A stretch of 57,801 nt of DNA, counting the filler, from Dugesia japonica (Eukaryota), in assembly GCA_001938525.1 (NCBI GenBank). It is 5 parts of 5 records of this genome, joined end to end, with 100 filler letters (N's around TTAATTAATTAA, not from the genome) between each part and the next. Parts side by side here need not be neighbours in the genome. Positions count along the whole stretch, not along the records: positions 1 to 17,832 come from MQRL01333658.1; 4 more parts are not named here. One strand, given 5' to 3'. Each line of letters starts with the position of its first letter. Within the stretch, counting starts at the first letter, position 1. The translations under genes were made by a program, and so were the position numbers. Positions 155 through 38,545 of this stretch are shown in pieces. The notes under the pieces are model-generated. The model had not been told where the DNA came from, did no database searches, and saw only the letters and a program-made list of their open reading frames with translations.

Positions 155-769
155 TTATTTATAGACTATAACACCATTTGGATTGAAAACATCAGTTAAA
201 ACTCTAAGATGATCAGGACATTGCTGTGTAAAATCCAGAAAAGTATATCCATGAGGCATTACTGTTGCATCTTTAAATGAATCCAATAGAAATTGTCGAT
301 TATTTGGATACACTTGTCTTGCTATAAAATCAACAACAGTTTGATCTCTTGGATTTTGAAATATAACCAAATATTGAACATTTAAATTACGAGTTCTATG
401 ATCACCACCTTTTTGAAATAGATTTTGTGTAATGAATATCACAGTAACACCACAATGTCTTGATATTTTTGTGAATAAATTGTTAAAGTCCTTTTCATTA
501 TTAGCTTCTTGATACAGATCATCAACAACATTCAAATCACCAGTTTTCAATTTCTTGCTCCAATTGTCATCAAATCAGTTAATTATGGTCATTTTTCTAT
601 CGCAAAATGCTGATTGAGTCATTTCATGCTCTTTATCTGCATCCCTCCCAATATGTTTGATTGAATTTTGATTTGAATAAGTTTGATTTCAATAATTTAC
701 ACACAAACCAGATTTTCCACTACCACTTGGTCCAACAATTTGATGTACAGCATTAATCCTTAATTCCAT
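155..769 (-). pseudogene. Maverick packaging ATPase (A32/FtsK-HerA family), disrupted
   Basis: From ATG 769: MELRINAVHQIVGPSGSGKS (Walker A), then a stop. ORF 155..550 has VVDDL (Walker B), SRH, FITQNLF and NPRD motifs typical of Polinton ATPases. Confidence 0.92.
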
Positions 770-859
770 TATAATTTATGCTTGCTTAAACGTATCAATT
801 GAATTAATATTGTTTATACAAGTATAAATACCATTTTAAAAAAGAATTATTCATAAATA

Positions 860-1321
860 ATGATTTCAAATATTAATTACAGAGGAAAGGTTGATCAAGA
901 AATAACCATAAAAACGAGATTTTCATGTGGAAAACCTGCTCAAGTAGTAGAGAAAATAGACAAGTATACCCTTGTTTTCTTTAAATCCGGATACTGTAAA
1001 ATCATGTGTTGTAAGAAACCAATAAGACTAAAGGATTTAAAGTATAATATCCAGAATATTCAATTATAATGACTTACAGTTGTCCATGATTTGAGAACTA
1101 TAGATAAGTTTATATGAATTATCCAAAGTAATCAAATGCGTATATGAACCAGAAATAATCCCAGGATTAAGAATTTCAAAATATGATCCATTATCTGTTA
1201 ATTTATTTTCAAGTGGAAGATTGTACTAGTTGGAATAAAAACATTTTATTATCAATCAATCTTTAAAGAAATATTAAAGGAATTAATGAAATTAATTAAT
1301 AATTTAAATACTATTGTTTAA
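860..1321 (+). pseudogene. TATA-binding-protein-like gene (two TBP repeats), disrupted; copy 1
   Basis: Repeat 1: ISNINYRG...TLVFFKSGYCKIMCCK. After the stop at 1067-1069 and a frameshift: CVYEPEIIPGLRISKYDPLSVNLFSSGR/IVLVGIK...NTIV*. Matches TBP TALIFSSGKMVCTGAK and YEPELFPGL...LIFVSGKVVLTGAK. Confidence 0.85.
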
Positions 1322-1326
1322 ATTAA

Positions 1327-2431
1327 GTGATTGTAAGTATTGTACACTTTTCTAAAAAGGATGATGTAATCTTGTCAGAAAAACAGAAGGAAATGTTGAA
1401 AGAAATAAAACTATTTAATGAAGATGTTGTTATCAAAGATGATGATGAATTCATGTTATCTTTCATGAAATGTCATGGAAGAACTATTACTCCAAAAATT
1501 ATTTCAGAAACTAAAGGTTATTTATCATTGAATTATGAAGATTAGCTCAACAAATTTAAAGCTGATGTTGCTAATAATCTGGCAAATGTATTCCCTCTTG
1601 ATTTATTTATTGATGCCATGGAGGAAATATAAAACGATGAAATTATACTTTATCGTCATAATTTAGAAGAAACATTACAAAGCGGTCCACAATCTCTTAT
1701 TCAAATTCAATTCCTGGATAGTCTTGTAATACTCAGAAGAATAGAATTAATAGATAAACTTAAATTTAATCCAGATTCATTGGAAAGCAAATTAACTAAT
1801 TATTTTTATGCACATGAGGAACGATCTGATGAAGACTATCAGCACTTTGAATGTTACATCAATACAAAAAATAGTATAACGGTTAAATATTTAAATCGTA
1901 TATTGGATCTACACCATTCTCGTGGTAATAATGCTCAAGATTTGGAACATGAAGTGAACTATTTTAGAAAAGACGATAGTCGGTTGTTAAGAAATTATAG
2001 CTATCGGTTATCCTCCCACTAAAGTATCTAAATTTAAAGATCTTCATCGTAAAAAACTTAATTTTGATGGTATAGAAGACGCTTTAAACTTTTTAAAAGA
2101 AAAAGATTTGGAGACGTATGCAATGAATCATCCCACGATTGAATCTTGCATATCAAGGAAACATAGTGAAATAGAAACTGGTGTATCTGTAATTAAATCT
2201 CTAATACAACCTTATAAGATATCGGATAGTACAGCTATGATATCTAATTTCTTTAGAGATAGTTTAGATGATTATATTAAAGGATTACCTAATGTTCCAG
2301 TTGATTTCGATTTCATTGATCCATCGCTAGATTTTTCAAATAAAAGACCAAATATTTTTTTATTGAACAAGTTGAAAAAACTTAATGTTTTTTTATGTAT
2401 ATTGTTGTTATTTTTTGTTTGCTTTAAGTAA
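1327..2431 (+). pseudogene. Degraded Maverick accessory ORF of unknown function
   Basis: ORF pieces 1327..1545 and 1780..2022 are in one frame and read through two stops; 2108..2431 follows after a shift. No recognisable motif. Confidence 0.5.
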
Positions 2432-2529: not shown

Positions 2530-4470
2530 ATATACCCAAACTCTATATTACATTTTTACTATGTAAAAAGTACCTTCATAAGTCTTAAATTACAAGTTTG
2601 TTATGTAAATTAATTCACTCATAAGCCTTATATTTCATAAACCTTATGTTTCATAGTTGATATGTAAATAATACAAAATAACTATGCAAATAGTATACAC
2701 ATAAACCTTTAATATATGGTTAGTATGTATTAATACACTCGGAATACTTGCAACACATGTTTGCTATGTAAATACTACACGCAAAAACCATATATTAAAA
2801 GGCTGTTATGTAAATATTACATGGTATCTAAACAAATAATATACTCGTAAACATTATATTACACGGTTACTGTGTATTGATACACTCATAATCCTTATAA
2901 TGCATGGTTGCTATGTAAAGAATGCAATGTAACTATGCAAGTAACACATTAATAAATCCTATAATACACGGTTTCTATGTAAACAATCCACACAAAAATC
3001 ATATCTTAAATGTTACATGTTACCTAAGCAAATAATACACTCGTAAATCTTATAATAATTATTATACAAGGTTGTTATGTAAATAATTCCCTTGTAAGTC
3101 TTATATTATAAAGTTTTTATGAAAATAATATACACCCAATACACGGTTACTATGTAAATAATACACTGAAACCATATATTTCATAGTTATTATGTAAATA
3201 ATACAAGGTAGCTATGCAAATAATATACTAATTAACCCTATAGATATCAAAATATTTACTTATAAGTCTTTTTTATATAGTCTTATTAGGTATTGAAAAA
3301 TTCTGTTTTTTTTATCATTTTGCATAGTCAAATTCCCAGCTAACATGTTTTTATGAAAAAATATTATGTTTTCATCATTTTTATAGAAAGTTGTCACCAC
3401 ATATATGTTATTTTTTTATAGAAAATTGCATCGCTAATGAGATTTTTTATTAAAAATCGGTATTGAGATCTTTTATAGACAATTGTCACTAGTAATATGT
3501 TTTTTACAGAAAATTTTCACTAGTAATATTGTTTTATAGAAAATTGTCACTAATTACATGTTTTTATAGAAACATTACATGACTAATATGTATAATAGAA
3601 AAATTACATATGTTTTTAAGAAAATAAAAGTTCTATGTTTTTAAATCTTGTAAAGAAAATTTTTATCATGAAAATATCAAAGACTTCCCTCTGAAATTTT
3701 TAATGGATATTTTTTATCATGAAAATGTCACATAGACTCCCGTTTTGGAAGTTTTTTTATGTATATGTTTTATCAAGAAAATATCACAATGACTCCTCTC
3801 TTTGAAGTTTTTTGATAGATATATTTTATCATTTAAATATCGCAAAGACTCCCTTCTTTGGTTATGCACTAAAAATCACATACATGGAAATTTTTATTAA
3901 TAAATGCAATAGATATGCAACTTCGATGTCACAAGAATCCAACATACACGTACACTGAAAATCATGCGTCAAAGAATTTTTAATAAATTTCCAAGCAAAA
4001 AGAAATTTTTAAAACTCAACATGGCCGTCATTTTGAACTTTTTATTGATTTTTTAATAAATGCAATAGGTATGCAACTCAGATGTCATGAGAATGCAACA
4101 CACATACAATAAAAATCATGTGCCTAGGAAATTTTATTAATAAATGCGATAAGTATGCAACTGAGTTGCCACAAGTACGCAACACATGTACAAAGAAAAT
4201 CATTTCACATTGACCCATCCCTTGCAACATATCAAGACTACACCATCTAAAGTAAAATATAAAGAAAAAATAAATAATGCTTCACACAAGACTGTTCAAT
4301 CTCTTACAAAAATATCAAGACTGCCCCATACCATGCAAAATATATAAACTCCCCATGCTAAATATCAAGACTGCCCCATACGATGTAAAATACAGAAACT
4401 CTCCGTTACTAAATATAGAAACTCTCCATGCTAGATATCAAGACTGCTCCATTTCATACAAAAATATAAA
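2530..4470. repeat. Series of degenerate tandem-repeat arrays inside the Maverick
   Basis: GTTRCTATGTAAATAATACAC units (about 2540-3240), TTTTATAGAAAATTGTCAC units (about 3340-3600), TTTTATCATGAAAATATCA..GACTCC units (about 3660-3860), TAATAAATGCAATAGRTATGCAAC x3 (about 3890-4200), ATATCAAGACTGCCCCAT units (about 4230-4460). Confidence 0.85.
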
Positions 4471-5476: not shown

Positions 5477-5563
5477 ATGAAGGAAAAACAAAATATCGAA
5501 TGTTGGTCATGTCATAAGATCGGTCATACTAAAGCAAATTGTCCGACAAAAAATAATATATAA
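5477..5563 (+). CDS. Mini-ORF with one CCHC zinc knuckle
   Basis: MKEKQNIECWSCHKIGHTKANCPTKNNI* is a perfect CX2CX4HX4C; an in-frame upstream ATG lies at 5444. Confidence 0.55.
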   Translation: MKEKQNIECWSCHKIGHTKANCPTKNNI

Positions 5564-5639
5564 ACAAAAGAGTGGATTTATTGCTGCATTATTACTAATA
5601 GCATTAGCAGCATTATGAATAAAAAATTTATTATAAACA

Positions 5640-6705
5640 ATGGGTAATTTAGAGTCATTATCACGAATTTATCTGAAATTTATCTCAAACTGTTGTAATG
5701 GAAACAATGTGGACAGATCTAAAAAAATCCAGCAGGATTCAAAGGATTGGAAAAGCTATAGAAAGCAACAAAAAGTTCAAAAAGCAAGACGAAAAAAATG
5801 GTTGTCGAACCAGTTAGCGTACAATCTGAACAAACCGATGTTGAAAAGATTCCCAACATGGTCGTATAAAACATATAGGATTGATGATTTATGGCAAATG
5901 GATTTGATGTAAATGATTCTATATTCAAGAATTAATAAAGGATGCAAGTATATTTTGACATGTATCGATGTATTTAGTAGATTTGCAAGAGCTGTACCTA
6001 TAAAATCAAAATCATTTATCGAAATGGAAGCTAAAATCAAGATAATGTTTAACGACAGTCATCCAGATAATTTGCAAACTGATTACGGAAAAGAATTTTA
6101 TAATACAAAAAACAAGAATAGTATTAATCATCTAAAACTTAACTATTATTCCGTATTTTCACAATATAAAGCGGCATATGTTGAAAGATTTAATCGAACC
6201 TTCAGAGATGCATTAAAAAACGTACTTTGTACATACTAGTAATAAGACATAGATTCATGTATTACCAAAAATAATTGACAGTTATAATCATATAAGGATT
6301 AAATGGAGCAAGACCCATTGATTTATCATCTGACAATTCAATGAAATTATGGTTATTGAATCAAAACCCAAAAGCAATTATAAAACATAAATATAAAGTT
6401 GGTGATCATTCATCAAAATTTTCAATAATAATTAGAGTAATGAAGTATTTCAAATATCAAAGATTAATACCAAGCAGAACCCTGTCATGTATATGATGAA
6501 AGATCATGAAGAAAATATTACTGTTGAAAGATTTTATGAACAAGAACTACAAGTCATAGAACAGCCACCAGTATTTAGAATAGAAAAGATTATAAAGTCA
6601 AAAAGAACTGGTAAATATAAACCTCTATATGTAAACTTACATGTGTGTGAAAAACTTACTTGGATATCTGCATCTCAATTAGTTAACAATGAACAACGCA
6701 AATAA
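5640..6705 (+). pseudogene. Maverick retroviral-like (rve) integrase with C-terminal chromo-like domain, disrupted
   Basis: WQMDL, YILTCIDVFSRFA, LQTDYGKEF, VERFNRT (DDE triad); C-terminal FYEQELQ...FRIEKII...TWI. Confidence 0.93.
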
Positions 6706-7726
6706 TTTCTATACAATTTTACCTAGTAATAGCTGTCCACGTATTCATCCAGATAATAATTCTAGTAAATTTATTGTTGAACTTGATAATCCAATTTACT
6801 TGAACAATAATTGAGAAGTACCATTGATGAACTTTACTATACAATACATTTTAAATCTATAGCAATGCATCTTTTGAATATGTAACTGGATATCAGCATT
6901 CAAAGGAAATATATATCACAAATAATAACAAAACAGAAAGATTAATTGTTAATAATGTTGCTGTTTTGATGTATTTGATGAAAGAAACTTGTTAGTTATA
7001 ATAAAACATCAGGATTATGATTAAATATTTGAAACTCTGGAAGAAGCGAAAAGATTTGGATTTGATAGTTTAAGTAATGATATTTCAAATAGTGGTATTA
7101 TTACTTTTCGAGACTTTAAAAATAATAGGGACATAGATAGAATTAAAGTTATATTAAAGTATTCATTAGAAAATACCGCTGTATTATCTTTTAATGACGA
7201 TTTATACATTAAAGATATACCAAAAATAAATGAATACATCACACATGCTTTTAGACATATATTCAAAACTTTTAGTTTAAAGACAAATGAAACATTTAAC
7301 GTTTCGTCAGAAACACTTAAATAAAAGAATCACCTTTGATGGAATCCTGACAGAAACATTAGAATTAGATAGTCAAACATATTCCCAAAGTAATATAAAT
7401 ATAGTTTATAAAGAGGAAATATTCAAAGGAGTTCGAAACCCAAAACTAATCACCAATCCTCATCAAAGGTTCATCTACAGTAATATTATTGAACCTATAA
7501 TAGTTGGCGATGCAAATGTTCCCTTGTTGAAATCATTATGGTTGGAGAGTTATGAAGATGAATAACTCGTTCAAATAATAGTTAAGAATCCAGTGTATCT
7601 ACCAATTGCTAGTTCATGTATAAACAATATAGAAATCAACATCATAGATGATAACGGCGATTATTTAGATTTGCCTCTGATGCAAAAACTCATTTAACAT
7701 TACACTTTAGGAAAATAAATGTCTAA
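6689..7726 (+). pseudogene. Maverick minor capsid protein (penton), disrupted
   Basis: N-terminus MNNANNFYTILPSNSCPRIHPDNNSSKFIVELDNPIYL; C-terminus FIYSNIIEPIIVGDANVPLL...NPVYLPI...NIEINIIDDNG...TLHFRK. Confidence 0.88.
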
Positions 7727-8040
7727 TACTGATATTATAGCACTATATAGCACTGGACAGTCTGGTGGTGAATTACTATACTTTGTAGGAAAATAGTATG
7801 GATTCGGATGTTGCAAACAGTTGGTCGATTTGCTTTACCTTTTCTTAATCAATAATAAAGCGAAAATTTTAACACCACTCAAAACAAATGTAATGAATGA
7901 ATTTAACAATTTTTTGGATTCAGATGAGCTTACAAAACTGATCTCAAAACCAAAGGGTGAAGAAAATCTTAAAGTTAGGGGGAAAAACGTAAGAATTTGA
8001 TCTTGATAGGTATAAACAAACGACTTAAAATATGTAAAAT
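7719..8040 (+). pseudogene. Small Polinton core-like protein with QxGG protease-site motif, disrupted
   Basis: MSNTDIIALYSTGQSGGELLYFVGK*YGFG/LQTVGRFALPFL resembles the Gly-rich small ORF found between Polinton capsid genes. End coordinate is approximate. Confidence 0.6.
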
Positions 8041-8052
8041 CATATTAGACTA

Positions 8053-8880
8053 ATGATTTGTGGAAAAACAGAATTGTGGATTTTTTATCGTCCATCTCCT
8101 CAAGGTGTTACTAAATATCGAGTATTGGAAGATGTGTTTCCAATGAATAATATTTCTGAAAGTACAAATGATGTAGAATGTTTTATAAATGAATCGCAAA
8201 CTGAATATTTGGATTTCAATGATACTTTCTTGTATGTTCAAGTGAATGTAGTGGATAAGAATGGTAAGAATCTAGAAAAAAAGTCTGATGTGGTTCCGGG
8301 TAATTTCATGTTGCATACTCTATTCAAGGACGTAATTCTTTAATCAAATAATATTAAATTTGAAGCTGCAAATGAAACTTATGTACTTAAAGCAATAATT
8401 GAGACTATTTTGAATTATAATAGAGATAATAATGATGTTTCTCTTAACGCAATAGGATATGGAAATGATGATTTTAGACAAACAAGAATTAGATCATCAA
8501 AACCATGGTCTCCATGTGGTCCTCTAAAACTAGACTTCATGAATCAACCAAAACAACTTATTCCAGGTGTCAATGCTTACATTTGATTGAAAAGATCGGA
8601 GGCAAGAATGTGTTTAGAATCCAAACTTGATGAACCAAAATATAAATTATTGGATGCAAAACTAATGATTAAAAGAGTTCGAGTGAATTCATCTGTACTA
8701 ACAGCTCATTAAATTAGACTAAGTAAACAAAATGCTATTTATTCTTTAGAAACCAAAGAAATTGTATAGTATGCAATTAGTAAAGACAGTTCATCCTTTC
8801 ATAAGGAGTAAATCTTTGGAGATCGAAGATTACCAACTTTTATTTTGGTTGCATTTAAAGATGGAGAATGGGTTAAGAAA
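8053..8880 (+). pseudogene. Maverick major capsid protein (double jelly-roll), 3'-truncated
   Basis: EYLDFNDTFLYVQVNVV, NFMLHTLFKDV, KAIIETILNY, GPLKLDFMNQPKQLIPGV, AKLMIKRVRV, RLPTFILVAF read in one frame across several stops. Confidence 0.88.
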
Positions 8881-9820: not shown

Positions 9821-11190
9821 ATGGGGAAGTATTATGGCCGCCGTTATAACAAGGTGGTATATTACATATGTCCTACATGCTCAAAATTAAGTATAGGATT
9901 ATACACAGATATCTATAGTATGCATGCACAACATTTAACAGAATTTAAAAAGAAAGCGTTATTTTTAAAATTAATAAATGATTATGTTCCTCCATGTAAA
10001 AAACTAAAATTGGAAATAATATATATAAGTGACGATGAACCCGAGATTAAGATTGATCTATCTGATAATCCAGTAGCGGATTCAATTGTGGATCTAACTG
10101 TTAATTCCGTTAATGATCCGACTGTTGATTTACTTGGTACTTCTAAGGATATTGATGATGAAATAGGAAGTTTTAAGGTGATTGATAAATGGTCTGATGA
10201 TGATACTTTTGATAAAGAAATAGATGATGAAGACAATGTTCTGAATAAGTATTTACCAGAAAACCAAGTTGGTGGTTCTATTATTCTTGATGAATTTATT
10301 GTAGAGTCAGATTTACGTAAATATTATCGAGTGTTAAAATTAGATGTTTCTAATTATAATATGAGAGAAATTATACTGACTGAGACTAAGACTAAGGGAA
10401 TTTTTCATTATAACTTTGCGACAAGTTTAGAAGTTTAAGAGGGAAAATTATCAATACCACCAATTTGGGAAGGAATTTCATGGGAAAATTACTTGAAAGC
10501 TGTTGATATGTGAGAATGTTTTGGTTGTAAGAATCCTTTAGACAATATGTTCATCTATTTGAAACTTGACGTTTTTTTAGCTGATTTCTTTCAGCAAAAT
10601 TGAGCTAAATCTTTAGCACATAATAGATTAGAACCTCTTAACTAATTGGTATTCCTGGAATCAGTTGGGCTTCTGCCTTGATACACTCTAATTGAACCAA
10701 TTGAGCTTTTGACTGGCAATGATATGTACACTTTCTTTAAATATGGAATAAGAGAAGGTCTTACTTTTGTAAATAAGCATTATGTGACTACAGATGATAA
10801 TACTGAGCTTTTGTACATAGATATTAGTAATATATACGGCTGGGTTTTAAGCCGAAAGCTTCCTTATAAGAACTTTGAATAGATTCATTCTGACTTGGAA
10901 AATTCTTTTATTGATTGTATGACTTTAGACTTAGATTCGTTGTCTCATGGTTATAGTGTTGAAGTTGATCTGTTGATTCCTATCGATTTACATAACTATT
11001 TAAGTGATTTGCCAGTTGCTGCTGAAGAACAATTAGTGCCAAGTACAAAATTAAAAAATTACTACCTACACATAACCCAAAAAACTGTGCAATACATTGG
11101 AGATAACTTCAATTGTATTTACAAATCAGGGTTGAAGTTACTTAAGTTCATAGGGCTATAAAATTTGATTAAGACTTTATCTTTAAAGTA
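9821..11190 (+). pseudogene. Maverick protein-primed DNA polymerase B (pPolB), internally deleted and disrupted
   Basis: N-terminal ORF with CxxC...H...H finger, acidic tract and QVGG. Downstream pieces YLKLDVFLADFF, PGISWASAL, IELLT...MYTFFKYGIREG, LLYIDISNIYGWVLSRKLPY (PolB motif A) and DLPVAAE. Confidence 0.88.
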
Positions 11191-11199
11191 TATGTACTT

Positions 11200-13749: not shown

Positions 13750-14780
13750 TGAGTGCAAACGCCAGATTCACACAAAATAAATTATTGAGTAACAAAAAGT
13801 AAGTTTCAGAACCGTAAACGCGTAATGAGTTAAACTCAAGTTTTACTAGACTACCAAATGATTTTGGTCTTATGACTGCTTCAGTATCTGCAATATTAGG
13901 AAAGCCTGGATTATTTTTTTTTTCGTTATCTTTGAATTTCAATTCTTGTTCTTTAGGCATGGCATAAAACGTAGTCTCTTTTGTTATTTCAATAAATAAA
14001 GCTACATGACGATCAAATGTAAGTTGTGGCTTGAAACTATATAAACACTTTCAGCACTACTTCATTTAAATTTGAATTCTCTATGTTCGATCGTATAATT
14101 TCATCAATAGATCCACATTTATTACTGCAATATAAAAAACGTATGATCATTTCCCAAGACTAACAAAACTACATGGCGTTCATTTGATTTTCTATTTAAT
14201 ATAAAAATTCAATTTTCTTCTTTATCAATGGTTTGATTATATGTAAACACTGTGATCAATAAATTAGTTTCTCTTCGAATTCTGAATTGTCAATGAGCTT
14301 CATCTGCATCTTGTGCTCATTACATATTAATTCATGTAGGAAATTATAATATTTTCTTCTGCCGATATCGGTTATCCTTGTCATACTTGAGTACTGCTAG
14401 TACATATAAAATATTTGTTGTCCGTATTGTAAAAATGCACTTTTACATTGGATCAATGTAATGATTCAGGACTTCGAATATATGATAGACAGATAAATAA
14501 ATTACCCGGGCAAATTTCAGCAAAATAAATCTCAGCTATAATATTCTTCTAATCTTCCACCTGCTTTATCTTCATTTGCTTTATCCGTTATTTAAACCAT
14601 AAAATAATCATTGCTTTGTACGATCACAATCATTCTTTAATTTCTTCCACTTCCTTCTCGCCATTCTTATTTTTAAATTTTATATATCTTTCAAATGACC
14701 CTATTACAATATTTGAATTTGTTTTACTTTCTTCTTCTACTTAATTTTCACGAGTTCTGGAATGAGAACCGATTTCATTT
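13750..14780 (-). pseudogene. Second, older Maverick pPolB fragment (N-terminal region up to ExoI)
   Basis: SYIRSPESL...NTDNKYF, RHVVLLVL, C*KCLYSF...FDRH, then MPKEQELKFKD...NIADTEAVIRP, paralleling the Polinton pattern CxRCL..F...H / MP...LKF.N...IYADFE. Confidence 0.62.
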
Positions 14781-15335: not shown

Positions 15336-16278
15336 AATTTTTTAATCATAAAAGCAAATAATTTTATGTAATTTTAAGTAATTTTTTAAAGTAATTTTAT
15401 GTGTGTAAATCGCATCATTTTAAATGTTTATATCGCTGATTTTCCACATTTAAAATTAAATTATATTAAATATTAAATTAAATATTAAATTATAGAATTC
15501 TAACAATGATAAAATAGATTATAAGTTGAATTTGATTCTATTAATCAATGACATTAAATTTATATGGCATGAAAATCGATGTTTATATTACTAATTTCAA
15601 TGTTATATTTTGTATATAAACTTTTAAACAGTGCTGTCTCAGAACTTTTTGAAAACAATGTTTAATAGTTGTGGATACTGACAGTTTTTCTTATAGCGTA
15701 CATGATTAGATAAAAACCAACTTTTATTCCAGATGAAATCGAATCGATATTTGGATATAAATAATTATCTAAAAGACCATCCTCTGTATTTCGGCAACAT
15801 AACCAACAAAATTCGTTTGTTTAAAGATGAAAGGAAAAGAGACAATAACACTAATAAGCATTCCTGGGGCCAAAGCTTTATAGTTTCAAAAATGAAGATC
15901 TTAGTATGACAATGAAGGCAAAATGAATCAGTTTCAAACAAACCGAAATGAATAATCAAAACTATTTAAATACATACAATAAAAATGGAGACGGAGAAGA
16001 AAAACCAAATCAAGTTATGGTGACTAGCTTCCAATCAATACATTATAGAGTATGCAACGTCCATTATTATGCCTAGAATTTAAACGCTTTTGGAGTACAA
16101 AAAATATTGATATGGGCTATGGTCATTATAAAATTAATACAAAAATATATAATTCCTGTTTTCATGATTTATTGACATCATTTTATCAAGGAAGAAGAAA
16201 AACGACGATGATTTTTATCAATTTATTATTTTTTATATATTGATTATGTAAATTGTAATAATAAGTGATGAATTATTT

Positions 16279-17932: not shown

Positions 17933-18028
17933 TGTTGTGTATTGTATGTTGTGTGTTGTGTGCTAGATGTTGTGTGTTGTGTATTGTAAGACAGTCATTA
18001 TTAATATTTGTTCCGCATCCGCATTCAG

Positions 18029-18296
18029 ATTGCAGTCAGAAGCTCAAGTGTTAGAATCCAAATTTATGGATAAATGTAAGAAAAATGGTTTGAAATGCTC
18101 CTGGAAAACAAGTCTCGGCAGTCCAACTCTAAATCTCGTTCATGCGGTAGAAGAGAACAAAGCTGATTTAGTCGTCATGGGCTCTCGAGGATTGAATCTA
18201 TTCCGGAGAACATTGGTGGGTTCTGTTTCAACATATGTAACGCAACATGTCAATATACCGGTGCTCGTCGTTCCTTCCTCTTCGAGTTGGGTCTAA
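18029..18296 (+). CDS. Universal stress protein (UspA-like), terminal exon
   Basis: ADLVVMGSRGLNLFRRTLVGSVSTYVTQHVNIPVLVVP is the USP G-2x-G-9x-GS signature; preceded by a CAG acceptor. The ORF start at 17967 is probably intronic repeat. Confidence 0.92.
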
Positions 18297-20628: not shown

Positions 20629-20752
20629 CGTGGTTAATTAAAATAAATGTTTAGCTAGAAATTTGCGTTATCTGTCTCGTTATTATTTTGTTGTTTATGA
20701 CACCATTCTGTCTTCATTTATTAAGCTATAGATTTCTTAGTAAACAGTCAAA

Positions 20753-21088
20753 ATGAGATCATTTTATTCTTATTGTATTTCTATTATAGTGCATTCGTCA
20801 TTAAACCGTTCGTCGACAACCAATAAGCAGATGAGAGATTCAAGTGAGGACACGGAAATGTCCTGGGAGTTATACCAGTTGGCAAAACGGCGATATGAAG
20901 CGGAGATAGCCACCGCGAACGCAAAGGTGAAACGATATAGAACTAAATACGTGAATGTTCGTAAAGAAATGGAAACTGCGCATGACCAGGAAAGAGTATG
21001 GAAATCGCAGATGGAATCATTTGCTGAAATCATCCGGCCCAGCCATGACCGGGAAAATAAACTGGTCGACGATATATTAAAGCTTTGA
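20753..21088 (+). CDS. Orphan basic coiled-coil protein
   Basis: Open 111 aa, GC-richer; helical ELYQLAKRRYEAEIATANAKVKRYRTKY segment. Confidence 0.5.
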   Translation: MRSFYSYCISIIVHSSLNRSSTTNKQMRDSSEDTEMSWELYQLAKRRYEAEIATANAKVKRYRTKYVNVRKEMETAHDQERVWKSQMESFAEIIRPSHDRENKLVDDILKL

Positions 21089-21296
21089 GAAAAAAACTAC
21101 CTAGAACCTCTGATGATAGATAAGAGCACTCAGACTAAATCCGTTTAGCCTGTCCCAATTGTACCGCACCTGTAAAATAAAGGATTAATTTTGTTATGAT
21201 TATCGTCCTCAATATATCTTATCTCAATTCTATGAACTTTTTTGTTGAATTTAATATTAATTAAAATTCTTCTGATAATAATAATTACTTAATTTA

Positions 21297-21710
21297 GTGC
21301 CTCGAATCGCGTTCCCTAATAGTCTGCGTCGATGCCATCGAATCATGCGCCGTCTCTTGATAGAAAGGCATCTTAAGCGGAATGCCGATCGAGCTCTTCT
21401 TAAACACCTCGATCAAAAGAATGAATTAATAAAGAAACTCGATCTAGTGATTAGGAAGCAGAGTGAGTTGGCAAACCAAATCAAAGCTCTGGAAGAGGAA
21501 ACCAGATTGCTGTTACAGCGGAAAATCGATTTCCTGCAGTATTTCTCGGACCTCTCCCGAATACTCGGTAACCCCACTAAGGTCCATTGGGACGACAAAG
21601 ATGATTCCGCATCGTTCAATTTTTTAACAACTGATCCGGCCCAGTGGTTAGGCCCGGTTGCATTTGGAACTTATGTAATTATTATACAAAATAAAGTTTA
21701 CCATGTTTGA
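21297..21710 (+). CDS. Orphan basic/coiled-coil protein (probably entered by splicing)
   Basis: Open 137 codons after a TTTAG acceptor; Arg-rich region followed by Leu/Ile heptads. Confidence 0.5.
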   Translation: MPRIAFPNSLRRCHRIMRRLLIERHLKRNADRALLKHLDQKNELIKKLDLVIRKQSELANQIKALEEETRLLLQRKIDFLQYFSDLSRILGNPTKVHWDDKDDSASFNFLTTDPAQWLGPVAFGTYVIIIQNKVYHV

Positions 21711-21944
21711 CTCAGTCTAACATTTAATAAATTCAGAAGAATAGGAAAAATAATGAACCCAAATCCAAAAGGGTATGGGTGTGCACTTCCCATAAGGTGA
21801 GAAGTCAACCGCTATTTGCTGAATACCTAAGTTAGGGGCGTTAGGTTAAATTCTTGAAAGGGTCCCCTGAGACCTGTTTTTCCCCAGCCACTGGTTTTTC
21901 GTTATTCAACTCAGGTGGAACCTCAACACACTCATAAACCGTAT

Positions 21945-22195
21945 AATACAGGGTTACTATGTAAACAATACACTTATTAACTATATGTTGTCATAACAAC
22001 ATTTACTTATAAGTTTTATATAGGCCTTAAAGATATTTTTCCAGTAGTCTTTAGTTATATATATGGAAAATTGACACTNTCACAAATCTTATAATGTAAA
22101 TTGCTATGTAAATAATACAAGGTATATATGTAAAAATACACTCATAAACCCTCTTTTTTCTTTAACCCTATTTAGATATCAAAATATTTACTTTG
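21945..22195. repeat. Repeat block shared with the piece-1 Maverick
   Basis: GGTTACTATGTAAACAATACAC, GCTATGTAAATAATACAAGGTA and TTAACCCTA(TT)TAGATATCAAAATATTTACTT match 2540-3262. Confidence 0.75.
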
Positions 22196-22928: not shown

Positions 22929-23375
22929 CTAAATTTTATCAAGCAAATTGAATAAATCTGAAGTAATGTTATTCACATATCCTTGAAAATATAAAATTTA
23001 AAGCCCTAGTATCACTACTTTTCTTGTTGAGAACACATTTACTCATAAAGGGTCATATTTTAAAAGTCTTAAATCAGGAAATAACTTTGGTTCGAACCAA
23101 CAGTTGACTATTCTTGCTAATTTATACAAATTTATTGAAACTCCCATATTTACGACAACTGTTAGTGACTGTAATTGAAAAATGTTTTATATCATAGGGG
23201 TTCAAATCATGCGGTTTCAATGGTTTCTTACATCCCATTATTCTACATTTTCCTGATCTGAAGAATACAATTTATCACTTTTAACTTTAACTTGACATGG
23301 TTTGACTATAGGAAAGCTCATTTTCTTTGTTACTTCTTGCGACATTTCACCTCTGTAATTAATATTGGTAATCAT
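22929..23375 (-). pseudogene. TATA-binding-protein-like gene, disrupted; copy 2
   Basis: MITNINYRGEMSQEVTKKMSFPIVKPCQVKVKSDK/IVFFRSGKCRIMGCKKPLKPHDLNPYDIKHF/QLQSLTVVVNMGVSINLYKLARIVNCWFEPKLFPDLRLLKYDPL*VNVFSTRKVVILGL*...; colinear with copy 1 and with both TBP repeats. Confidence 0.88.
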
Positions 23376-24647: not shown

Positions 24648-24911
24648 TTATTCATCCAGTGTGATGGTTTCTTTCGATCTTGTTCTGGCAACTTCCGGTA
24701 CCGAATTGGATGCTTGAGTTAAGGTCCGTACCGTTGCGATCAGCACACTTTCACTGTCCGCATAGGCTTCGTTGATATCCGCCATAGCACGGCAAATTTG
24801 TGATAGTGCGAGATCTCGTTCTTTTAATTTGATTATTTTTTCACGGAGTTGAGCATTTTTCCTTGCAATTCGGTAATTTCCGTCTTTAATCTTTTTTGGG
24901 TCAAACACCAT
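24648..24911 (-). CDS. Orphan coiled-coil protein
   Basis: Open 87 aa from ATG; NYRIARKNAQLREKIIKLKERDLAL helical segment. Confidence 0.45.
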   Translation of the reverse strand: MVFDPKKIKDGNYRIARKNAQLREKIIKLKERDLALSQICRAMADINEAYADSESVLIATVRTLTQASNSVPEVARTRSKETITLDE

Positions 24912-25223
24912 TTTGCCCGTAGGTCTGTGATTGAATTATCTGTAGATCTTTTGGTTTCAGACACTACAATAATCAGATAATAATCAAATAATAAATAATA
25001 ATCAAATTAGTAGTATAATTTACAATTCATTTCAACATCATTTTTAAATTATATTTTGAATAAGTATTGAAATACAACAGCTATCTCGCTCACATTAACT
25101 AAATTGTCAACCTTAAGATTACTGGTATTATTCACGACAACATGGCCGATGTTATTAATTATTATCACTGTAAATAAACAAGTAACTCTTTCAAAGAAAA
25201 CTATATTACAATGCATAACATAA

Positions 25224-25448
25224 TCACACTATGGTTTCCACACTGTTGTCATCCAGTGGTGTTAACACTTGCTGGAGTATTGTTTCGACTTTGTTGTTCA
25301 GCCGTTCCGATAGTTTAGTATATTCGTCGGCCTCCAACTGCGCTGCCCGCAACGTCCGAATCACCTGCTGCTGTTGCTTGGCGAGCTCCATTGATCGGAT
25401 CAGTAGAGATATCAGCTCTTTCTCTCTTTCCTGCTGACACTTGCTCAT
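25224..25448 (-). CDS. Orphan coiled-coil protein
   Basis: Open 74 aa; its ATG overlaps the TGA of the upstream ORF (ATGA). Confidence 0.45.
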   Translation of the reverse strand: MSKCQQEREKELISLLIRSMELAKQQQQVIRTLRAAQLEADEYTKLSERLNNKVETILQQVLTPLDDNSVETIV

Positions 25449-25747
25449 CTCCTCCAGTTGTGTCTGATGCTGTTGATCCTGTTTCTCACTCGTATTTGGA
25501 GAGTATTTATTCTCTGGACCTGCTCGGAGAACTGCGACCGTTGCCGGAGAATTTCCCGCCGCAATTCTTTTATTTCTATATCTTTAGCCCGTAATTGATC
25601 CTGAGAAATCCACCAAGGATCGTTGTCTGTTCCTTCAGTGCCGACAGAGTCCCAGAACGGTGGCATATTATTGCACGCGCTAGTTTCAAATACATAACCA
25701 GTGGGTTCTAGAGTCTGCATCGCCTCTTGTTTAGTGATTGTTGTCAT
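25445..25747 (-). CDS. Orphan protein with Arg-rich coiled-coil C-terminal half
   Basis: Open 100 aa; ATG directly after a CTAG acceptor-like site; GC-richer than flanks. Confidence 0.45.
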   Translation of the reverse strand: MTTITKQEAMQTLEPTGYVFETSACNNMPPFWDSVGTEGTDNDPWWISQDQLRAKDIEIKELRREILRQRSQFSEQVQRINTLQIRVRNRINSIRHNWRR

Positions 25748-27677: not shown

Positions 27678-28527
27678 TTAGACTAATGTCCATTGGATAT
27701 AATTTGGAATTTGTGGGTTATTGCGACGCCAATAATGCTGCTTCTTCCACCTGTATCGCTTATGCATTTGAATTATCATAACTATAAAACCGAGAAGGAA
27801 AAGTAATGCAATCATTCCCAGTATTGAAAAAGGGTCATATAATATTTTAGGATCAAATGGTTTTACTGTTGTTGTAATCCATAGTTGTAGAATTTTATTT
27901 CGTAATTGTTGATAATCTACTTTTGGATTGTCTCGAGAGTTTTCCTTGAACCACTTTAAATGCTTGTGTTTATATTTAATGTTACTTGTTTTATGACACT
28001 ACTTGGTGATGTATTTATATGTAAGGTGCTTGTTTCTCTTTGCTCTGTATATATCGCCTTGTTTGTTGATATCATATTTATGCTCGTTATTTTCTTTGAT
28101 AAAATTTTCTGATTTGATGCGGTTTTAAACACCTTTGTTATTACAACTGGCTCTTCCTTCTCTACTATCCATTGTACTATGATTTGATACCATGTGTCTG
28201 CTTCCAAACCTTGTAGCTGTATCCGACTTATTTCTCGACCAAATTTCTCCTCTATTGATACGTATAAGCCTGTTTCCATAATTAATTTGTTTCTTCTTCT
28301 TGCTGATACTTGTGTTATGTTTTCTATATCATTGTGTGCAATGAAGGTAATTTTATCTGAATATATTGTTCTGGTCAAGTAATTTTGTCCTTTTCTTGTT
28401 GAGCTGAACTTAGTGTTATTAGAGCGAGTACTGTTAATGTCAAGAGTGGTAGAGTATTCTGTGAACTCGATCGACGATTATACTTATGTTGCTTTTGAGG
28501 TTCAATTTCTGCTTCCGCTATTTTACA
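27678..28527 (-). pseudogene. Signal peptide-FN3-like-S/T stalk-TM protein following the Gypsy integrase
   Basis: Integrase frame continues CKIAEA...HKYNRRSSSQNTLPLLTLTVLALITLSSA|QQEK; after a shift IQLQGLEADTWYQIIVQW (FN3 L-x-x-L-x-x-x-T-x-Y), then a Thr/Ser-rich tract; after another shift ILGMIALLFLLGFIVMII-QMHKRYRWKK...TLV*. Confidence 0.65.
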
Positions 28528-31500
28528 TCAATTTACTGCTACAATTATTGGATCATCATTTTTATTTTCTATCACATGTAGACCGGTTGGAGTTACTTTG
28601 ACTACTTCATATGGAACTTTGTAATGTCTCGCCAATTTATTTGTTAATACTTTCTGTGTAACTGGTATTTTTATTCTCACTTTATCTCCAATTTTGAAAT
28701 TATGCTCCTTGGCATTTTTATCATATTGATCTTTGTATTGTTCTTGTTCGAATTTCACTTTTAAATTTTCATGTTTGTATACTTCTTGCAATCTCTCTTG
28801 AATCTTTGTAACATAATCTGGATTATCCATATATTGCGATACAGCCGGTTCAAATGTTACATCTATCAACATATGGTTTTGTCTTAGATACATCAAGTAA
28901 AAATATAAATATCCTGTAGCCTCATTTTCGGTTGTATTATGTATGAATAACTTGGGTTTGATAAAGAGATCACAATCATTTTGATGTTTATTTACGAAAA
29001 CTGCCAATCTATTACATAATATACTGTTAAATCTTTCTACTAATCCATCTGTTTGTGGATGATAGGTCGTTGTATTTATTTTCTTGATATCAAACATACT
29101 TGTTACTTGTTGTATGACTTCATTGAGAAAACTTTTCCCTTTGTCTGATGATAGTTTTTTTCGCGCTCCATATTTGTAAATAATTTTCTCAACTAATAAT
29201 CTTGCTACTGTTTCTGCTGCTTCATCTTTTGTAGGAAATGCTTCTGCAAACTTTGTGAAGTAATTGTTGAATACTAATATGTGTTTATTACCTTTTATGG
29301 TTGTTGGTAATTTGCATGGGAAATCCATTGCGCATGTTTCCATTGGTGAGCTGGGTCTTGGCATGGGCTGCAATGGAACTTTAGTTTTTGTTCCTGTATT
29401 CTTTCTTGTATCACAAACACTATATGCTTGACACCATTTTCTCGCATCATCTTTAATATTGTGCCTATAATACTTTTGCAACAATCTCGACGTGGTTTTT
29501 CTACTTGACAAGTGTTCTCCAAGTGCTCCATCATGGTATTGTAATAGTAATAACTGTTTTAGAGAGTCTGGCTCAATCATTAGATTTTTTCCTAGGTTAT
29601 TGTACATGAGCAGACTTTTATACATTTTATATTTAGTATTCTTTTCTTGAATCATCATCTTTTTAATTTCTTGTATTTTTATCTTTATTTTGTTCTTATA
29701 AAAATGTTTTTGGATTTGTTCAAGTTACAATTGACATAATTTCTAATACATTTATTTCTGAAATTCTGAACAATGAATCTGCATTTCTATTAGCTTTTTC
29801 TGGTTTGTATATAATACGTATGCTCATATCTTGAATTTTCATCGCCCATTTGAGTATTCTACTGGATGCAACCTTATTTTTCCACAAACCTTCTAGTGAT
29901 TTATGATCCGTTCGTATAATTATTTCAGTTCCATATATAAATGGTCTAAACTGCTTTAACGCAAATATGATAGCTAAACATTCCTTTTCGATAATTTAGT
30001 ATCTTGTTTCCGCTGCTTTTAACATTCTTCTTGCATATGCGATGACATAGTCTTTATTTTTCTCGTCTTCTTGCCCGAGTACTGCCCCCATGGCATATTC
30101 GCTTGCATCTGTCATTACTATGAATTGTTTGGTAAAATCTGGGTATCTTAGTATTAGGGTTGTTAACAATCGTTGTTTTAGTGTATTGAAGGCTCCTTGT
30201 TGCTTAGGACCCCATTGAAGTTTTTTGATTTTTCATCTAATTGCTCTACAATCATAACATTTTTGCTTTCACCTTTTGTTTTCACGCCTTTTGTTAATTC
30301 TACTAATGGTGATGCTATCTTTGCAAAGTTTTCTATAAATCTCCGATAATATCTCACTAGACCATTAAATCTTTTTAATTGTTGTACGCATTTTGACACT
30401 GGAAAATCTTGAACTGCTTTCACTTTCTCTGGATTGGGTTCTAATCCTTTTGATGATACAATATGTCCAAGGAATAAAACACTTTCCTTTGCCCATTTAC
30501 ATTTTCTTGGCTTTAATTTGATATTTGCCTTTTTGATTCTGGATAATACATTTTTTATGTTGACTAAATGTTGCTCTAACGATTTGGATGCTATTAATGT
30601 CATATATGTATACCACTACATGTTATACACCTGCTGGTACTGTGTTCATTAATCTTTGGTACGTAGCTGGTGCATTGCATAATCCAAATGATAATCGAAC
30701 AAACTCATATAGTCCACCATCAGTACAAAATGCTGTCTTTATTCGATTCTCTTTCTGTACTGGGATCACATTATAACCTTTATTGGCGTCTAAAATTGCA
30801 AAATACCACGCGTTCATGAGTTTATTGAATTGTTTGTGTATCTTTGGAAATGGATGTGTATCTTTTTTTGTAGCTTCATTAAGTTTTCTGTAATCTATAC
30901 ACATTCGAATTTCTCCATCTTTCTTTTTAACTGGTACTATTGGTGATGCCCCTTGACAAAAAACTATTTTGTATGATTCCATTAGGTTTGTTTTCCTCTA
31001 CTTGTCTTTTTATTTCTGGTTTCAACGCATATGGTGCTACATATGGTTGTTGTTTTAAAAGCCTCGTATCGCATGTGTCAATCATATGTTTTATAATATT
31101 TGTTCCTCCCATATCGAATTCATGCTTGGCAAATGCATCCTCATATTTATCCTATAATTTCTGTAATTGTTGTTTTTGACTCACTGTAATATCTTTGTTC
31201 GTTATCTTTGTTTTCTCATATTACTTAGTTTGTTTGGATTTTATGAGTTCTGTGTCAATTAATTTTCCAATTTTGCTTTGCTGATCTAAAATAAATTCAA
31301 ATAAATCATGACTACTTAACTGACTTGTCATTTTGCTTGTTTTTTTTGCGATCTCACAATGTTGTGATATGGTGTATCTGGATAATTAGGTGAAAATAGT
31401 TTATTCAGTAACTGCATGTTTGTTTTCCTTGGTTGTTTCTCAATTACAATTTCATATATCTCATATCCACTACCGTTTTCAAATAATCTTCCTAATTTTG

Positions 31501-32201
31501 TTCCTTTCTTCAGTGTCATATCGTAATTATTAACGTTTGTTATTCTCATTGGTATTGTACCTTTTTTCGGTTCTACAAATCCATACATTATTGATAAATA
31601 ATGTTTTGATGTTAGTTCGGTTCAAAAATATATGAATCTTTGCTTTGAAATTCTGTGTTAATGGGTATTATACATTCACTACAATGTTCTATCGTTATTA
31701 ATTCTGTTGCAAATACATCATAATATTTAGTTTGTACTAGTAACGGAGTTACCATTTTTAGTGTACTGTCTTGTAAGTCGATGACATAACCCTTTAATCT
31801 TGCAAGAAAATCCATGCTTGAAATGCTATTTTGTGTTCCATTTTCCATTACTCTAAACAATTTCTTATCTGATTGTGACTGTACATTCAATTATTCTTTT
31901 TGTTTTTATTATATGATCTGTAAATGATTTTATACCTTCTGGTTTATAATTTTTATGTTTTGTTTTTGTGACTCTTTTATTATTGAGCTTCTGTATCTGT
32001 TAGTGAAGGTATATTGATTCCGTTTACTATGATGTCTCTTGTTGGTCGATTATTTTCTGAGTCTATAACTACTATTTGATAATTTTTTTGATATTTGTAT
32101 TGTGATTGATCATCTATTTTTATATGTTTTAATTCGATACTTTCATGTTCATATGGTTTATATTCATTATCTGACGACGTGTAATTCTTGTCATTAGTCA
32201 T
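28528..32201 (-). mobile_element. Ty3/Gypsy family A pol (PR-RT-RNase H-INT), disrupted
   Basis: PR IVNGINIPSLTDTEAQ; RT SPIVPVKKKDGEIRMCIDYRKLN, GLYEFVRLSFGLCNAPATYQRLM; RH VMTDASEYAMGAVL; INT HHCC zinc finger, SDKGKSF, YHPQTDGLVERFN. Confidence 0.95.
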
Positions 32202-32253
32202 TTATCTAATTCTTGTTCATCATTCATGTTTACTGTGTTTCTTTAGATTTTTT

Positions 32254-34005
32254 TTAACTATGGTTTTGCACAATCACATGTTTTGCGATGAATAAACAGA
32301 AAGATGCTCCTAATTTCCAAGTGTAACCAAAACCTGCATGTAATTATCTTAAAGAAAGAAGTTGATGATCCGTTAATTTTAAGAATCTTAATACATACCA
32401 CCCAAATAAAATACATGAGAATATTACATTAACCATTACATTCGCTCCAAGAATCTATCTTAAAAATGACGCATTGTCCTTTTAAAATGATCTACGTGCA
32501 ATAGTGACTCAAAATTTACATCATTTCCAGTACTCCCTTTTACTACTTTGTCAACCATTATGGATATTATCTTTTCTCTTTGTATTGGGAAAAGCATATG
32601 TTTACTTACTTTCTCAATATTATTGATAGTGTGAATTCCAAGATTTTTCATGTTGTCAATTCTCTCCATTTCGGTTGTTCTCTGAGTTTTATCATTTCCA
32701 TTATGAAGGGAATTGGTGCTGTCTTTCTATTTGATACTGTTATCCATACTTTGTCCGTATTTTATACATAGGTTCAAGAACGTTACTACACTTTCCAATT
32801 ACATTTGGTTGATAATGTTTATCTGTTAATATTCTTGCTATTGCGAGTAAAAATACCTTTTCTCCTTTATAGATTACTGGTAATTCATTAGTGCATTTCT
32901 CATAATCTGGGAGAGTAACTGCTACTGGTTTGCATCTAAAACTTACCAAAGTTTCTCCCACTATTCTTTCAAATGTACCTTTTCTTCGAGCAAGAGTGCT
33001 ACAACCAAATCAGGTTTTGTGACTTCCATTGCCATTTTTGTTCTTAACAATTCTCGGTAAATTTTACATTCTTTCATGACGGTTTCCTGATATTTTCTGT
33101 CTATTTGTCTTAATATTTCATGATATAGGAAATCAATTTTGTTGTTTAAGTAGGCAGCTATTTTCACATTTAATTTATCTACTTCTGGTCTGGCATCTTT
33201 AATTTCCGTTGTTGATAAATATAGACCATTGTAATTGGTTATTTTTACCGCCACGCCACATTTGGTGTCTACTCCTTTTCCAATAAATCTTAGCGCTTCT
33301 TGTGTTGAAATTGATATATATATATATATATATTTGGTGTTGCCTTTTCATTGATTACTGTTGTTTTCCTTTTTTTATCTCGAATATTAGGTGGCTTATC
33401 CTTTGGTTGAGTTCCATTAATTTCTTTCATTGCCACTGTTCTTAATTTTGTGAGTGTACATTCAAACGGATTTATTTTGTATGTGATCATGGACTCTCCG
33501 GTATCAAAATTTGTATCTTTTGAGCTACAAAATGGATATGTCATCATCTTTCCAGTACCAGCGTCGAATGTTGCTTTTATTTTCTTTAATTCGACATGAT
33601 ATCAGTTTTTACTTGTCATCATATTTTATAGCTTCCTCCTCCACAATATCCAATTGCTGTGAACAATCCTACGATGTCTACTTTTTGTTTCACTATTGTA
33701 CCTACTTTTACTTGTAACTCATTACCATGTACTTTTAGCGTTTTTGTTTTAAATGCCTTTTCACAATCACTTGCATCTATTATTACTATGTCTGGAGACC
33801 AAGCTGGTATTAGTGGTATTATTTGTGTACTATCACAATATGATACTTATTCTTTAAACTTTACACTACATTCATATGCAACTGCGTGTAAAAAATCAGA
33901 TTCTTGATACAAATGAATAATTGTTGGATTTGATATTTTCATTTTTGTAGGATGCGCTTCTGGAAAATTATCTACATCTAATAGTGAATATTTTTTTGCC
34001 CCATT
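32254..34005 (-). pseudogene. env-like glycoprotein, chuvirus G / class III fusogen type, disrupted
   Basis: YSLLDVD, HLYQES...AYECSV...SYC, YLNNKIDFLY, ECKIYRELL...PDL, GETLVSFRCKPVAV...CTNELPV...RIL...C...PMYKI, TM NVIFSCILFGWYVL, LHAGFGYTWKL follow the motif order I recall for chuviral glycoproteins. Confidence 0.78.
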
Positions 34006-34029
34006 TTAGAGTATTCCTCTTGATTTGAT

Positions 34030-38159: not shown

Positions 38160-38545
38160 ACTGATCTGCATTTCAATGCAACTCCCCTTTTCGATATTCC
38201 ATTTTCATGTCCAAACTGCTCAAAAATTTAAGCCGTGTTTGACACTGTGGCGTTACCGGTTTTATTGTATTTGTCATAAACATAATTGCTTTATGATCCT
38301 TTTTAATCAAAAATTTCCTTTCATATAAATACTGCCTAAAATGTTGAGTAAAATAATAAATAGCCAACAATTTGTACCTAGTTATGCAATACCCTAACTC
38401 GTATTTGGTCATCAGCTTAAATTCATAAGCAATAACACGTTCGAATCCGTGATCATAGCTTTGTGATAAAACTATACCTATTGTGTCCAATCTTGCATCA
38501 GTATTTAAAATTAAATACACAATAATTCCTCCAAAACTCAAAATT
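38160..38545 (-). mobile_element. Gypsy RNase H fragment
   Basis: ILNTDA...IGIVLSQ...ERVIAY...YCITRYKLLAI...FRQYL...DHKAI...YRKGELH. Confidence 0.88.

Follow-up and report, generated by a model that had tools for sequence, protein, structure and literature searches.

A broken TBP-like gene of Dugesia japonica belongs to a conserved Polinton mini-TBP family associated with a non-canonical TATA-like box

The TATA-binding proteins (TBPs) of Nucleocytoviricota and mirusviruses often have a viral RNA polymerase as partner. TBP-like proteins of Nucleocytoviricota and mirusviruses are described as keeping the DNA-contact phenylalanines and losing the N-lobe regulator signatures (PMC7221094, PMC10132985), features shared by the Polinton protein described here, and they are reported to pair often with a viral TFIIB (PMC7221094). 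Viral TBPs are also described from beta- and gamma-herpesviruses (PMC7498053). Among these, KSHV ORF24, a large, multidomain protein, is presented as part of a multi-protein viral complex; direct TFIIB binding is reported to be incompatible with the ORF24 model (PMC12529657). The herpesvirus system likely resembles the Polinton one in its polar-faced viral TBP, its non-canonical late box and its use of host Pol II, whereas the Polinton protein is a bare domain with the TFIIB-contact residues kept. The Polinton mini-TBP is probably a variant of viral TBP-driven transcription, itself known from herpesviruses.

For Mavericks/Polintons, the vertebrate set is given as eight core genes plus pm, TBP not being among them, and the accessible text of that paper does not contain 'TATA' (PMC8097293); 'tata' is likewise absent from the main text of the coral polintovirus paper. 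The legend of Fig. 5 in Starrett et al. 2021 (PMC8502044; bioRxiv 10.1101/697771), in the section on non-animal datasets, carries the gene label 'TBP', by which a TBP-like gene on a Polinton-type element has been named in print. This label could denote the mini-TBP family, the carrier element not being readable from the legend text. Section 3.2 of the same paper, on other adintovirus genes, lists no TBP, nor does the searchable part of its supplement, and sections 3.2, 3.4 and other passages give no promoter or mechanism for TBP. In the literature searched, which left many subscription papers and Repbase outside its scope, no published analysis of a TBP in Polintons, or of a TATAAAC promoter in these elements, was found. 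The original prediction that TBP is not a described Polinton gene is thus right as regards analysis, but not as regards that figure label.

The window, the whole stretch of DNA analysed here, comprises 57,801 nucleotides of AT-rich, eukaryotic DNA from Dugesia japonica (GCA_001938525.1) in five joined parts. A broken TBP-like gene, copy 1, was located at 860..1321 on the plus strand by its motifs, by an intact relative, P0004, and by mapping of its stops and frame changes. Plus-strand translation places the ATG at 860 and the closing stop at 1319-1321. The first piece (NINYRG...FFKSGYCKIMCCKK) spans 860 to about 1102, the second (YEPEIIPGL...NLFSSGR) occupies 1104-1223 in a different frame, and the third (KIVLVG...) returns to the frame of the first until the closing stop. 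The motifs NINYRG, YEPEIIPGL, NLFSSGR and IVLVG were all found where predicted. The gene had been described as carrying one stop and two frameshifts; there are indeed two frame changes, near 1102 and near 1216-1220, but the in-frame stops number two, adjacent at 1067 and 1070, both in the first piece. The Pfam scan of the first piece gave zero matches, and the second piece alone matched PF00352 with 15 bits (E=0.023), under the cut-off. A read-through with X at the stops matched two natural proteins, among them P0004 (153 aa) at E=6e-48 and with 75, 85 and 81% identity to the three pieces, respectively, so the resemblance is not due to chance. P0004 was used as the natural intact stand-in for the broken gene. 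The conserved Polinton mini-TBP gene is dead in this copy, 860-1321 (+); the locus is a fossil, and its value lies in the mini-TBP family to which it leads. On its 3' side, three or four ORF pieces at 1327-2431 (+) gave zero matches in the 82 loci described below and zero Pfam matches above the cut-off; weak Pfam matches at 1327-2428, under the cut-off, were taken as chance. RNA reads of relatives span 1201-1800 on the sense strand.

Head-to-head with copy 1 lies an A32-like packaging ATPase at 155..769 (-), with 59% identity over 207/212 aa to the ATPase of locus L005 (E=1e-78). The predicted distance of 90 bp is exact (ATPase ATG at 769 on the minus strand, TBP ATG at 860 on the plus strand), and the partner gene is at its predicted place, but it is broken as well, by 2 stops. 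The ATPase of L008, in the same cluster, matches Pox_A32 at 4.8e-6. A second Polinton block, on the plus strand, opens with the 3' end of a small conserved gene at 5538..5633 (cluster C3, HMM E=1.9e-5), called PM-like by its position (PMC8097293); in relatives C3 comes after the ATPase. It is followed by a broken retroviral-type integrase (INT) at 5640..6684 (PF00665 E=7e-5; tblastn), a broken putative minor capsid protein (mCP) at 6695..7714 (tblastn to cluster C7), a small broken gene, conserved and PW-like by position, at 7719..7916 (tblastn to cluster C16), and the 5' two-thirds of a putative major capsid protein (MCP) at 8053..8862, broken by 5 stops and 46% identical to the cluster C11 protein of L010 (E=3e-74). 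The name mCP rests on the gene order INT-mCP-PW-MCP-PRO (PMC8097293) and the name MCP on gene order and size, Pfam matches being zero for both; the jelly-roll capsid candidates are conserved ORFs whose order and size are those expected. A broken fragment of the protein-primed PolB (pPolB) lies at 10340..11196 (+), and further fragments at 13871-14134 (-) and 15682-16147 (+), all found by tblastn; L062, a member of the pPolB cluster, matches PF03175 at 3e-23.

The pPolB, the rve integrase and the A32-like ATPase, all broken fragments in the window, are intact in L008, L010, L056 and L057. These genes, together with the order INT-mCP-PW-MCP-PRO in related loci, are what the system shares with Mavericks/Polintons. 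An adenain-like protease was not found in the window; it is present in 8 related loci, one of which matches PF00770 at 3.7e-5. Self-BLAST of the first 15 kb gave no terminal pair of inverted repeats, the element being rearranged and cut off by the start of the window. INT, the putative capsids and pPolB, predicted to lie on the same piece as the TBP-like gene, are present at 5.6-11.2 kb, the capsids as putative ones, but between them and the TBP/ATPase block lie about 3.1 kb of repeat-rich DNA. Since repeats intervene and the window INT is on the strand opposite to the ATPase, as against the same strand in 15/15 related loci having both, the Polinton block either has been rearranged or consists of pieces of separate copies.

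The TBP fold was verified on P0004, which matches PF00352 at 5.8e-12 (45.7 bits, cut-off 22.9) in one stretch, residues 67-128, corresponding to the second lobe. Its AF2 model (pLDDT 95, pTM 0.83) gave 44 PDB matches at E<=1e-3 in Foldseek, the best at 3.4e-9 and all TBP among those listed, the next non-TBP fold being at E=0.05. With query TM scores of 0.62-0.75 to TBP structures, the model is a two-lobed saddle, although identity to solved TBPs is 20-26%. P0004 also matches 35 distinct PDB sequences, whose titles are nearly all TBP or TBP fusions, and its best viral structural matches in BFVD are giant-virus TBPs at 6-18% identity. In hhalign the family aligned with TBP at 99.2%, both lobes being covered. 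Of the two TBP repeats originally proposed, the second is a full TBP lobe by sequence, while the first is trimmed and becomes visible by profile-profile alignment and structure, not by sequence.

Profile searching yielded 305 clusters at E<=1e-3 from 3683 candidates, a set whose tail may include canonical TBPs; judged by score, the best 120 of the 305 are without exception complete or nearly complete members of the family. An exhaustive search gave 58 representatives (50% clustering) at E<=1e-30. The dN/dS ratio had a median of 0.28 and a maximum of 0.59 over 164 non-independent pairs with dS of 0.05-1.5 from 66 locus-encoded ORFs, as compared with 0.11 for the ATPase (12 pairs) and 0.15 for INT (8 pairs). 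By these ratios the mini-TBP family appears to be under purifying selection.

The metagenome scan yielded 78 loci, and comparison of the family alignment with viral contigs added four NCLDV-type loci (L001-L004). Linkage and motif counts were made on 72 of the 82 loci, L001-L004 and the six weakest metagenome loci, the partial matches L077-L082 (E>=1e-5), being dropped; the metagenome loci come from few samples and are not independent. Counting ATPase, INT, putative capsids, PW-like, protease, pPolB and PLA2X, a core Polinton gene was present on 35/72 loci, on 24/32 of those of at least 3 kb and on 12/15 of those of at least 5 kb, in line with the predicted Polinton linkage. Three layouts were observed: TBP upstream of ATPase-C3-INT-capsids, TBP after capsids-protease-C4, and pPolB-PLA2X-TBP-ATPase, the PLA2X-type loci matching the virion module of the Mayetiola class (Alpha) described by Starrett et al. 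TBP and ATPase occur together in 24 loci and are divergent as in the window in 2 of these (L007, L050). The proposal that this one lineage captured a TBP does not hold, the family being broad and showing at least three gene-order types (ATPase-adjacent, protease-adjacent and PLA2X-type). Searches of the viral contig set with P0004, the capsid alignment and the ATPase alignment gave zero matches. The TBP match in L002 and L003 is a 566-aa NCLDV protein with one TBP lobe and a SAP domain.

Beside the TBP gene, conserved beta-rich small proteins are encoded at L008:1256-1822, L010:1788-2135 and L032:1296-1865 (clusters C2, C18 and C21); HMM comparison shows a weak relation between C2 and C21. These proteins may resemble single-stranded-DNA-binding folds, or they could be TBP partners; an Atlas search with C2, for which the model was poor, gave scores all under 0.9. 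Host-like accessory genes were also observed, namely a ubiquitin-conjugating enzyme, a dual-specificity phosphatase, an LRR protein and RING fingers (L008:225-719, L017:4008-4316, L032:1918-3327, L052:1710-2168 and L056:13315-13893).

The origin of the family was examined in a maximum-likelihood tree of 60 rows, in which 37 family rows lie on one side of a 100/100 branch and 23 other TBPs on the opposite side (11 eukaryote-type, 8 archaea-type, 2 NCLDV and 2 unassigned two-lobe proteins; labels mostly assigned by sequence appearance, four being source-named and one of these animal). The tree is unrooted, has long branches and was built from rows other than TRF2, herpesvirus, poxvirus or mirusvirus proteins. 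The mini-TBP family does not nest among the sampled cellular TBPs, and the two NCLDV TBPs, unlike the mini-TBPs, group with eukaryotic TBP. On these sequences, the tree rules out a recent copy of canonical TBP, and it names no donor. The broken state of copy 1 and its rearranged, repeat-rich surroundings are what would be expected if a recent processed pseudogene of host TBP or TRF2 had landed in Polinton debris. This explanation is hardly credible in view of the dozens of relatives that are intact, under selection and set in Polinton surroundings, the identity of 20-26% to solved TBPs, and the position of all 37 family rows beyond the 100/100 branch relative to the 23 canonical-type TBPs, in a tree without TRF2. 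Because the family stands apart from all sampled cellular TBPs, the gene is not a recent host pseudogene, in agreement with the original prediction.

Residue counts for the mini-TBP come from 112 close relatives and 90 wider intact ones, with positions mapped by profile alignment. As in cellular TBP, the saddle fold, the C-lobe EPExFP stirrup and three of the four intercalating phenylalanines are kept (in the wider relatives, Phe41 in 88/90, Phe100 in 89/90 and Phe116 in 89/90). The mini-TBP differs in its length of about 150 aa, in being intronless and element-borne on its separate branch, and in its DNA face, where the fourth intercalating phenylalanine, the first of the N-lobe, is Pro in 80/90, and near-invariant non-canonical residues are found at Arg47 (87/90), Met49 (90/90), Ser/Thr71 (90/90) and Asn114 (89/90). 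In place of the canonical concave face of four Phe with Asn/Val/Leu/Thr, there are three Phe and several replaced near-invariant positions. The N-lobe of TBP reads the 3' half of the box; residue-to-base assignment rests on alignment and on known TBP-DNA structures, not on a DNA-bound model. The N-lobe linker is 17-22 aa long in 109/112 close relatives versus 32-33 aa in 20/20 canonical TBPs, a shortening by 13 aa, and in the P0004 model it contains no helix of at least 4 residues. The basic patch of N-lobe helix H2 is described as the site for TFIIA, TAF1, Brf1, Mot1 and NC2 (PMC7221094). As judged from alignment and model, the short linker removes most of this regulator helix in the close family; the loss is not universal, since linker length ranges over 13-50 aa across the wider family.

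The two acidic residues of the C-lobe stirrup, TFIIB contacts according to Ravarani et al. 2020 (PMC7221094), are kept as Glu96 (80/90) and Glu98 (89/90), while viral TBPs generally are reported there to have diverged at the TFIIB-contact positions. Retention of this ExE pair is also what a TFIIB sponge needs, and it agrees with an explanation in which host TBP/TFIID or a TBP paralogue reads the promoter box described below and the Polinton protein serves as a decoy or repressor competing for TFIIB or for host TATA boxes. A sponge, however, has no need of the invariant remodelled DNA face, and we consider this explanation unlikely. The decoy alternative offered by the original prediction sits badly with the DNA-facing residues, which vary less than any other part of the protein.

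Inspection of upstream regions led to the choice of a non-canonical TATA-like box, YATAAAC, which was counted in windows reaching from -100 to +30, with dereplication of the upstream regions at 80%, at loci from few metagenome samples. The box was found before most packaging and virion-type starts, including ATPase (18/19), MCP (9/9), mCP (10/13), PW-like (5/6), C3 (15/16), C19 (4/4), PLA2X (8/9), protease (4/5), C4 (9/12), C32 (5/5) and INT (11/13), relative to a background of 5.7% in 3994 windows. Before TBP starts it occurred in 3/52 (shuffle 2.25), and before C2, C8, C12, KilA-N and pPolB in 3/20, 0/8, 0/8, 0/4 and 1/3, respectively. The TBP genes are instead preceded by TATAWAWR in 22/52 (shuffle 9.2). 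The modal box position is 33-45 nt before the ATG. When nine gene classes were pooled, the box was present in the sense orientation in 82/93 windows and in the antisense orientation in none, and replacement of the position-7 C by A, T or G was seen in 7, 12 and 2 windows. Coding constraint may add to some of these counts, since 7/23 ATPase boxes lie within an upstream ORF. The distribution suggests that the box marks late-type genes, 'late' being read from the gene type, but not the TBP genes; with 82/93 against 3/52, the alternative originally proposed, that the protein drives its own promoters, gains a matching promoter box to which it would bind.

The motif was derived without the window, which carries the box within 100 nt before 5/5 packaging, virion or INT-type starts: ATPase (818, -), C19/INT (5559, 5632), mCP (6616), PW-like (7619) and MCP (8011). 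The putative ATPase box (TATAAAC, 812..818, -) is 49 nt upstream of the ATPase ATG and stands back to back with a canonical TATA box, TATAAATA (823..830, +), a candidate promoter element 37 nt upstream of the ATG of copy 1. No YATAAAC was found before the TBP-like gene of the window.

As a control, five Polinton loci (L083-L087) were collected by ATPase alone. The TBP-bearing L083 has the box before PLA2X, C3 and INT, and AATAAAC before its ATPase. In the four stretches without TBP, which are partial, two being from one bin and three of 51-56% GC, the box was found before 0/4 ATPases; L085, extending from pPolB to protease, carries no box ahead of any ORF start listed, and in L087 a box precedes a methionine internal to INT. 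Four of the five control source bins were searched, and among these the family was found only in the TBP-bearing one. These control contigs sit in bacterial genome bins, where host-animal or eukaryote contamination is likely; L083 combines the TBP gene with PLA2X, ATPase and INT.

The absence of the box before the ATPase of the four TBP-less stretches, a small and mostly GC-richer sample that lends weak support, argues against reading by host TBP with the Polinton protein as decoy, as does position 7, where C was the one base not tolerated in the yeast functional screens (PMC4457894). A C:G pair at this position is reported to be forced into Hoogsteen pairing by a TBP leucine (PMC4402545). On the side of the decoy, cellular TBP has been crystallised on a C(-25) box, according to the title of PDB 1qn3. 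The box also bears on the quite unlikely alternative that the protein bends DNA for replication, packaging or integration, for example at the termini or an origin, while another viral or host factor reads the box. Such a role would suit the frequent position of TBP beside the packaging ATPase, with both in 24 loci, and the conserved C2, C10, C18, C2H2 and KilA-N proteins could be transcription factors; it would leave the kept TFIIB-contact glutamates without purpose, and the box is TATA-like, has TATA-like spacing and is confined to the sense strand.

We consider it fairly probable, judging from sequence and model, that the intact protein is a viral promoter factor, transcribed from a host-readable promoter, binding YATAAAC, recruiting host TFIIB and Pol II, and escaping the N-lobe regulators. 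Host machinery would first transcribe the TBP-like gene, which lacks YATAAAC and often has an ordinary TATA box. The mini-TBP would then activate the genes behind YATAAAC, a box that cellular TBP would use poorly because of the C at position 7. On this box it would bring in host TFIIB and RNA polymerase II for transcription of the packaging and virion genes, and the trimmed N-lobe would free it from the host regulators Mot1/BTAF1, NC2, TAF1 and TFIIA. Among the neighbouring ORFs chosen for scanning from a total of 739, no TFIIB Pfam match was found. In a bolder and more tentative form, to which we give somewhat less than an even chance, many animal Polintons would carry a host-orthogonal two-part switch, in which a 17-kDa TBP has its N-lobe rewired for C7, has shed the dock for evictors and co-activators and has kept the TFIIB handle.

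The mini-TBP might also read the box but require viral partners in a pre-assembled complex of the herpesvirus kind, without direct use of host TFIIB. KSHV ORF24 is described as pre-assembling with Pol II and ORF34 (PMC12529657), most viral TBPs are described as diverged at adapter positions and paired with a viral TFIIB (PMC7221094), and conserved neighbour genes exist. The ExE pair is kept in the mini-TBP, however, the neighbours vary between gene-order types, and the protein has only about 150 aa without an extra domain. On this last point the evidence from the search for longer proteins is weak; it returned weak matches of partial coverage (E>=2.5e-17), of which those named or aligned are cellular-type TBPs. 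We therefore judge the need for viral partners very unlikely.

If the promoter-factor reading is true, the self-encoded TBP and its matching box would provide a concrete early/late model for the control of Polinton capsid and packaging genes, and YATAAAC would serve as a sequence marker for Polinton late genes. In the bolder form, the switch would be a minimal viral late-gene system and would allow a direct test of when virion genes are expressed by endogenous Polintons; in a vertebrate survey, Polinton particles are stated not to have been observed. The mini-TBP would represent a natural TBP with changed DNA specificity whose TFIIB docking is likely unaltered, of use in TBP biology and in the design of orthogonal promoters.

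Expression was followed in poly(A) RNA runs labelled as the same species and mapped at 85% likeness. The reads are mostly 85-95% alike to the window and differ even on the host universal stress protein (USP) exon, indicating an origin from other copies, in a strain that has diverged, and not from the copy 1 locus. This USP exon (17967-18293, +; PF00582, 1e-16) is spliced and expressed and was used as the strand control, giving 74 vs 0.6 and 87 vs 1.2 in runs X21 and X23 of one study; X24, weakly stranded on USP, and X20, too thin, were left out of strand claims. In X21 and X23, respectively, sense versus antisense reads were 30 vs 12 and 44 vs 1 over copy 1, and 52 vs 11 and 57 vs 14 over a second copy, copy 2. 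The first frameshift of copy 1 is absent from 19/19 and 29/29 reads, and the second from 16/20 and 17/20. ATPase reads at 301-600 were antisense versus sense 75 vs 24 and 67 vs 15, and INT reads were mixed to antisense, so no late programme is visible in the RNA. The sense transcripts of TBP relatives, with ATPase-sense reads in the minority, would also be expected of a decoy. The RNA pattern is explained equally well by read-through or silencing-related transcription and by an early-only state.

Copy 2, broken by frameshifts and stops, was found at 22932..23375 (-). It belongs to a subfamily different from that of copy 1 (68% nucleotide identity; nearest relatives P0026 and P0034), and no core Polinton gene was detected beside it. 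In DNA run X1, more than 100 contigs match parts of copy 2, and the summed depth over it is 2-3e5 vs 10-26 on nearby unique DNA; this is not a copy number, but the excess indicates that the TBP-like family is highly repeated in Dugesia japonica. Degenerate AT-rich minisatellites of one family lie near both TBP-like copies, at 2545-3280 and 21925-22193. Elsewhere the window contains an Srw-type GPCR (40902-41951), which together with the USP exon indicates an invertebrate animal as host, perhaps a flatworm-like one, and, from translations, decayed pieces of Gypsy-type LTR retrotransposons with protease, RT, RNase H and integrase (27959-36585, 38173-38565 and 56711-57576). Coiled-coil-rich ORFs of higher GC, without a confident Pfam family, are present at 20744-21707 (+) and 24651-25747 (-), those at 20744-21707 sitting on repeated DNA.
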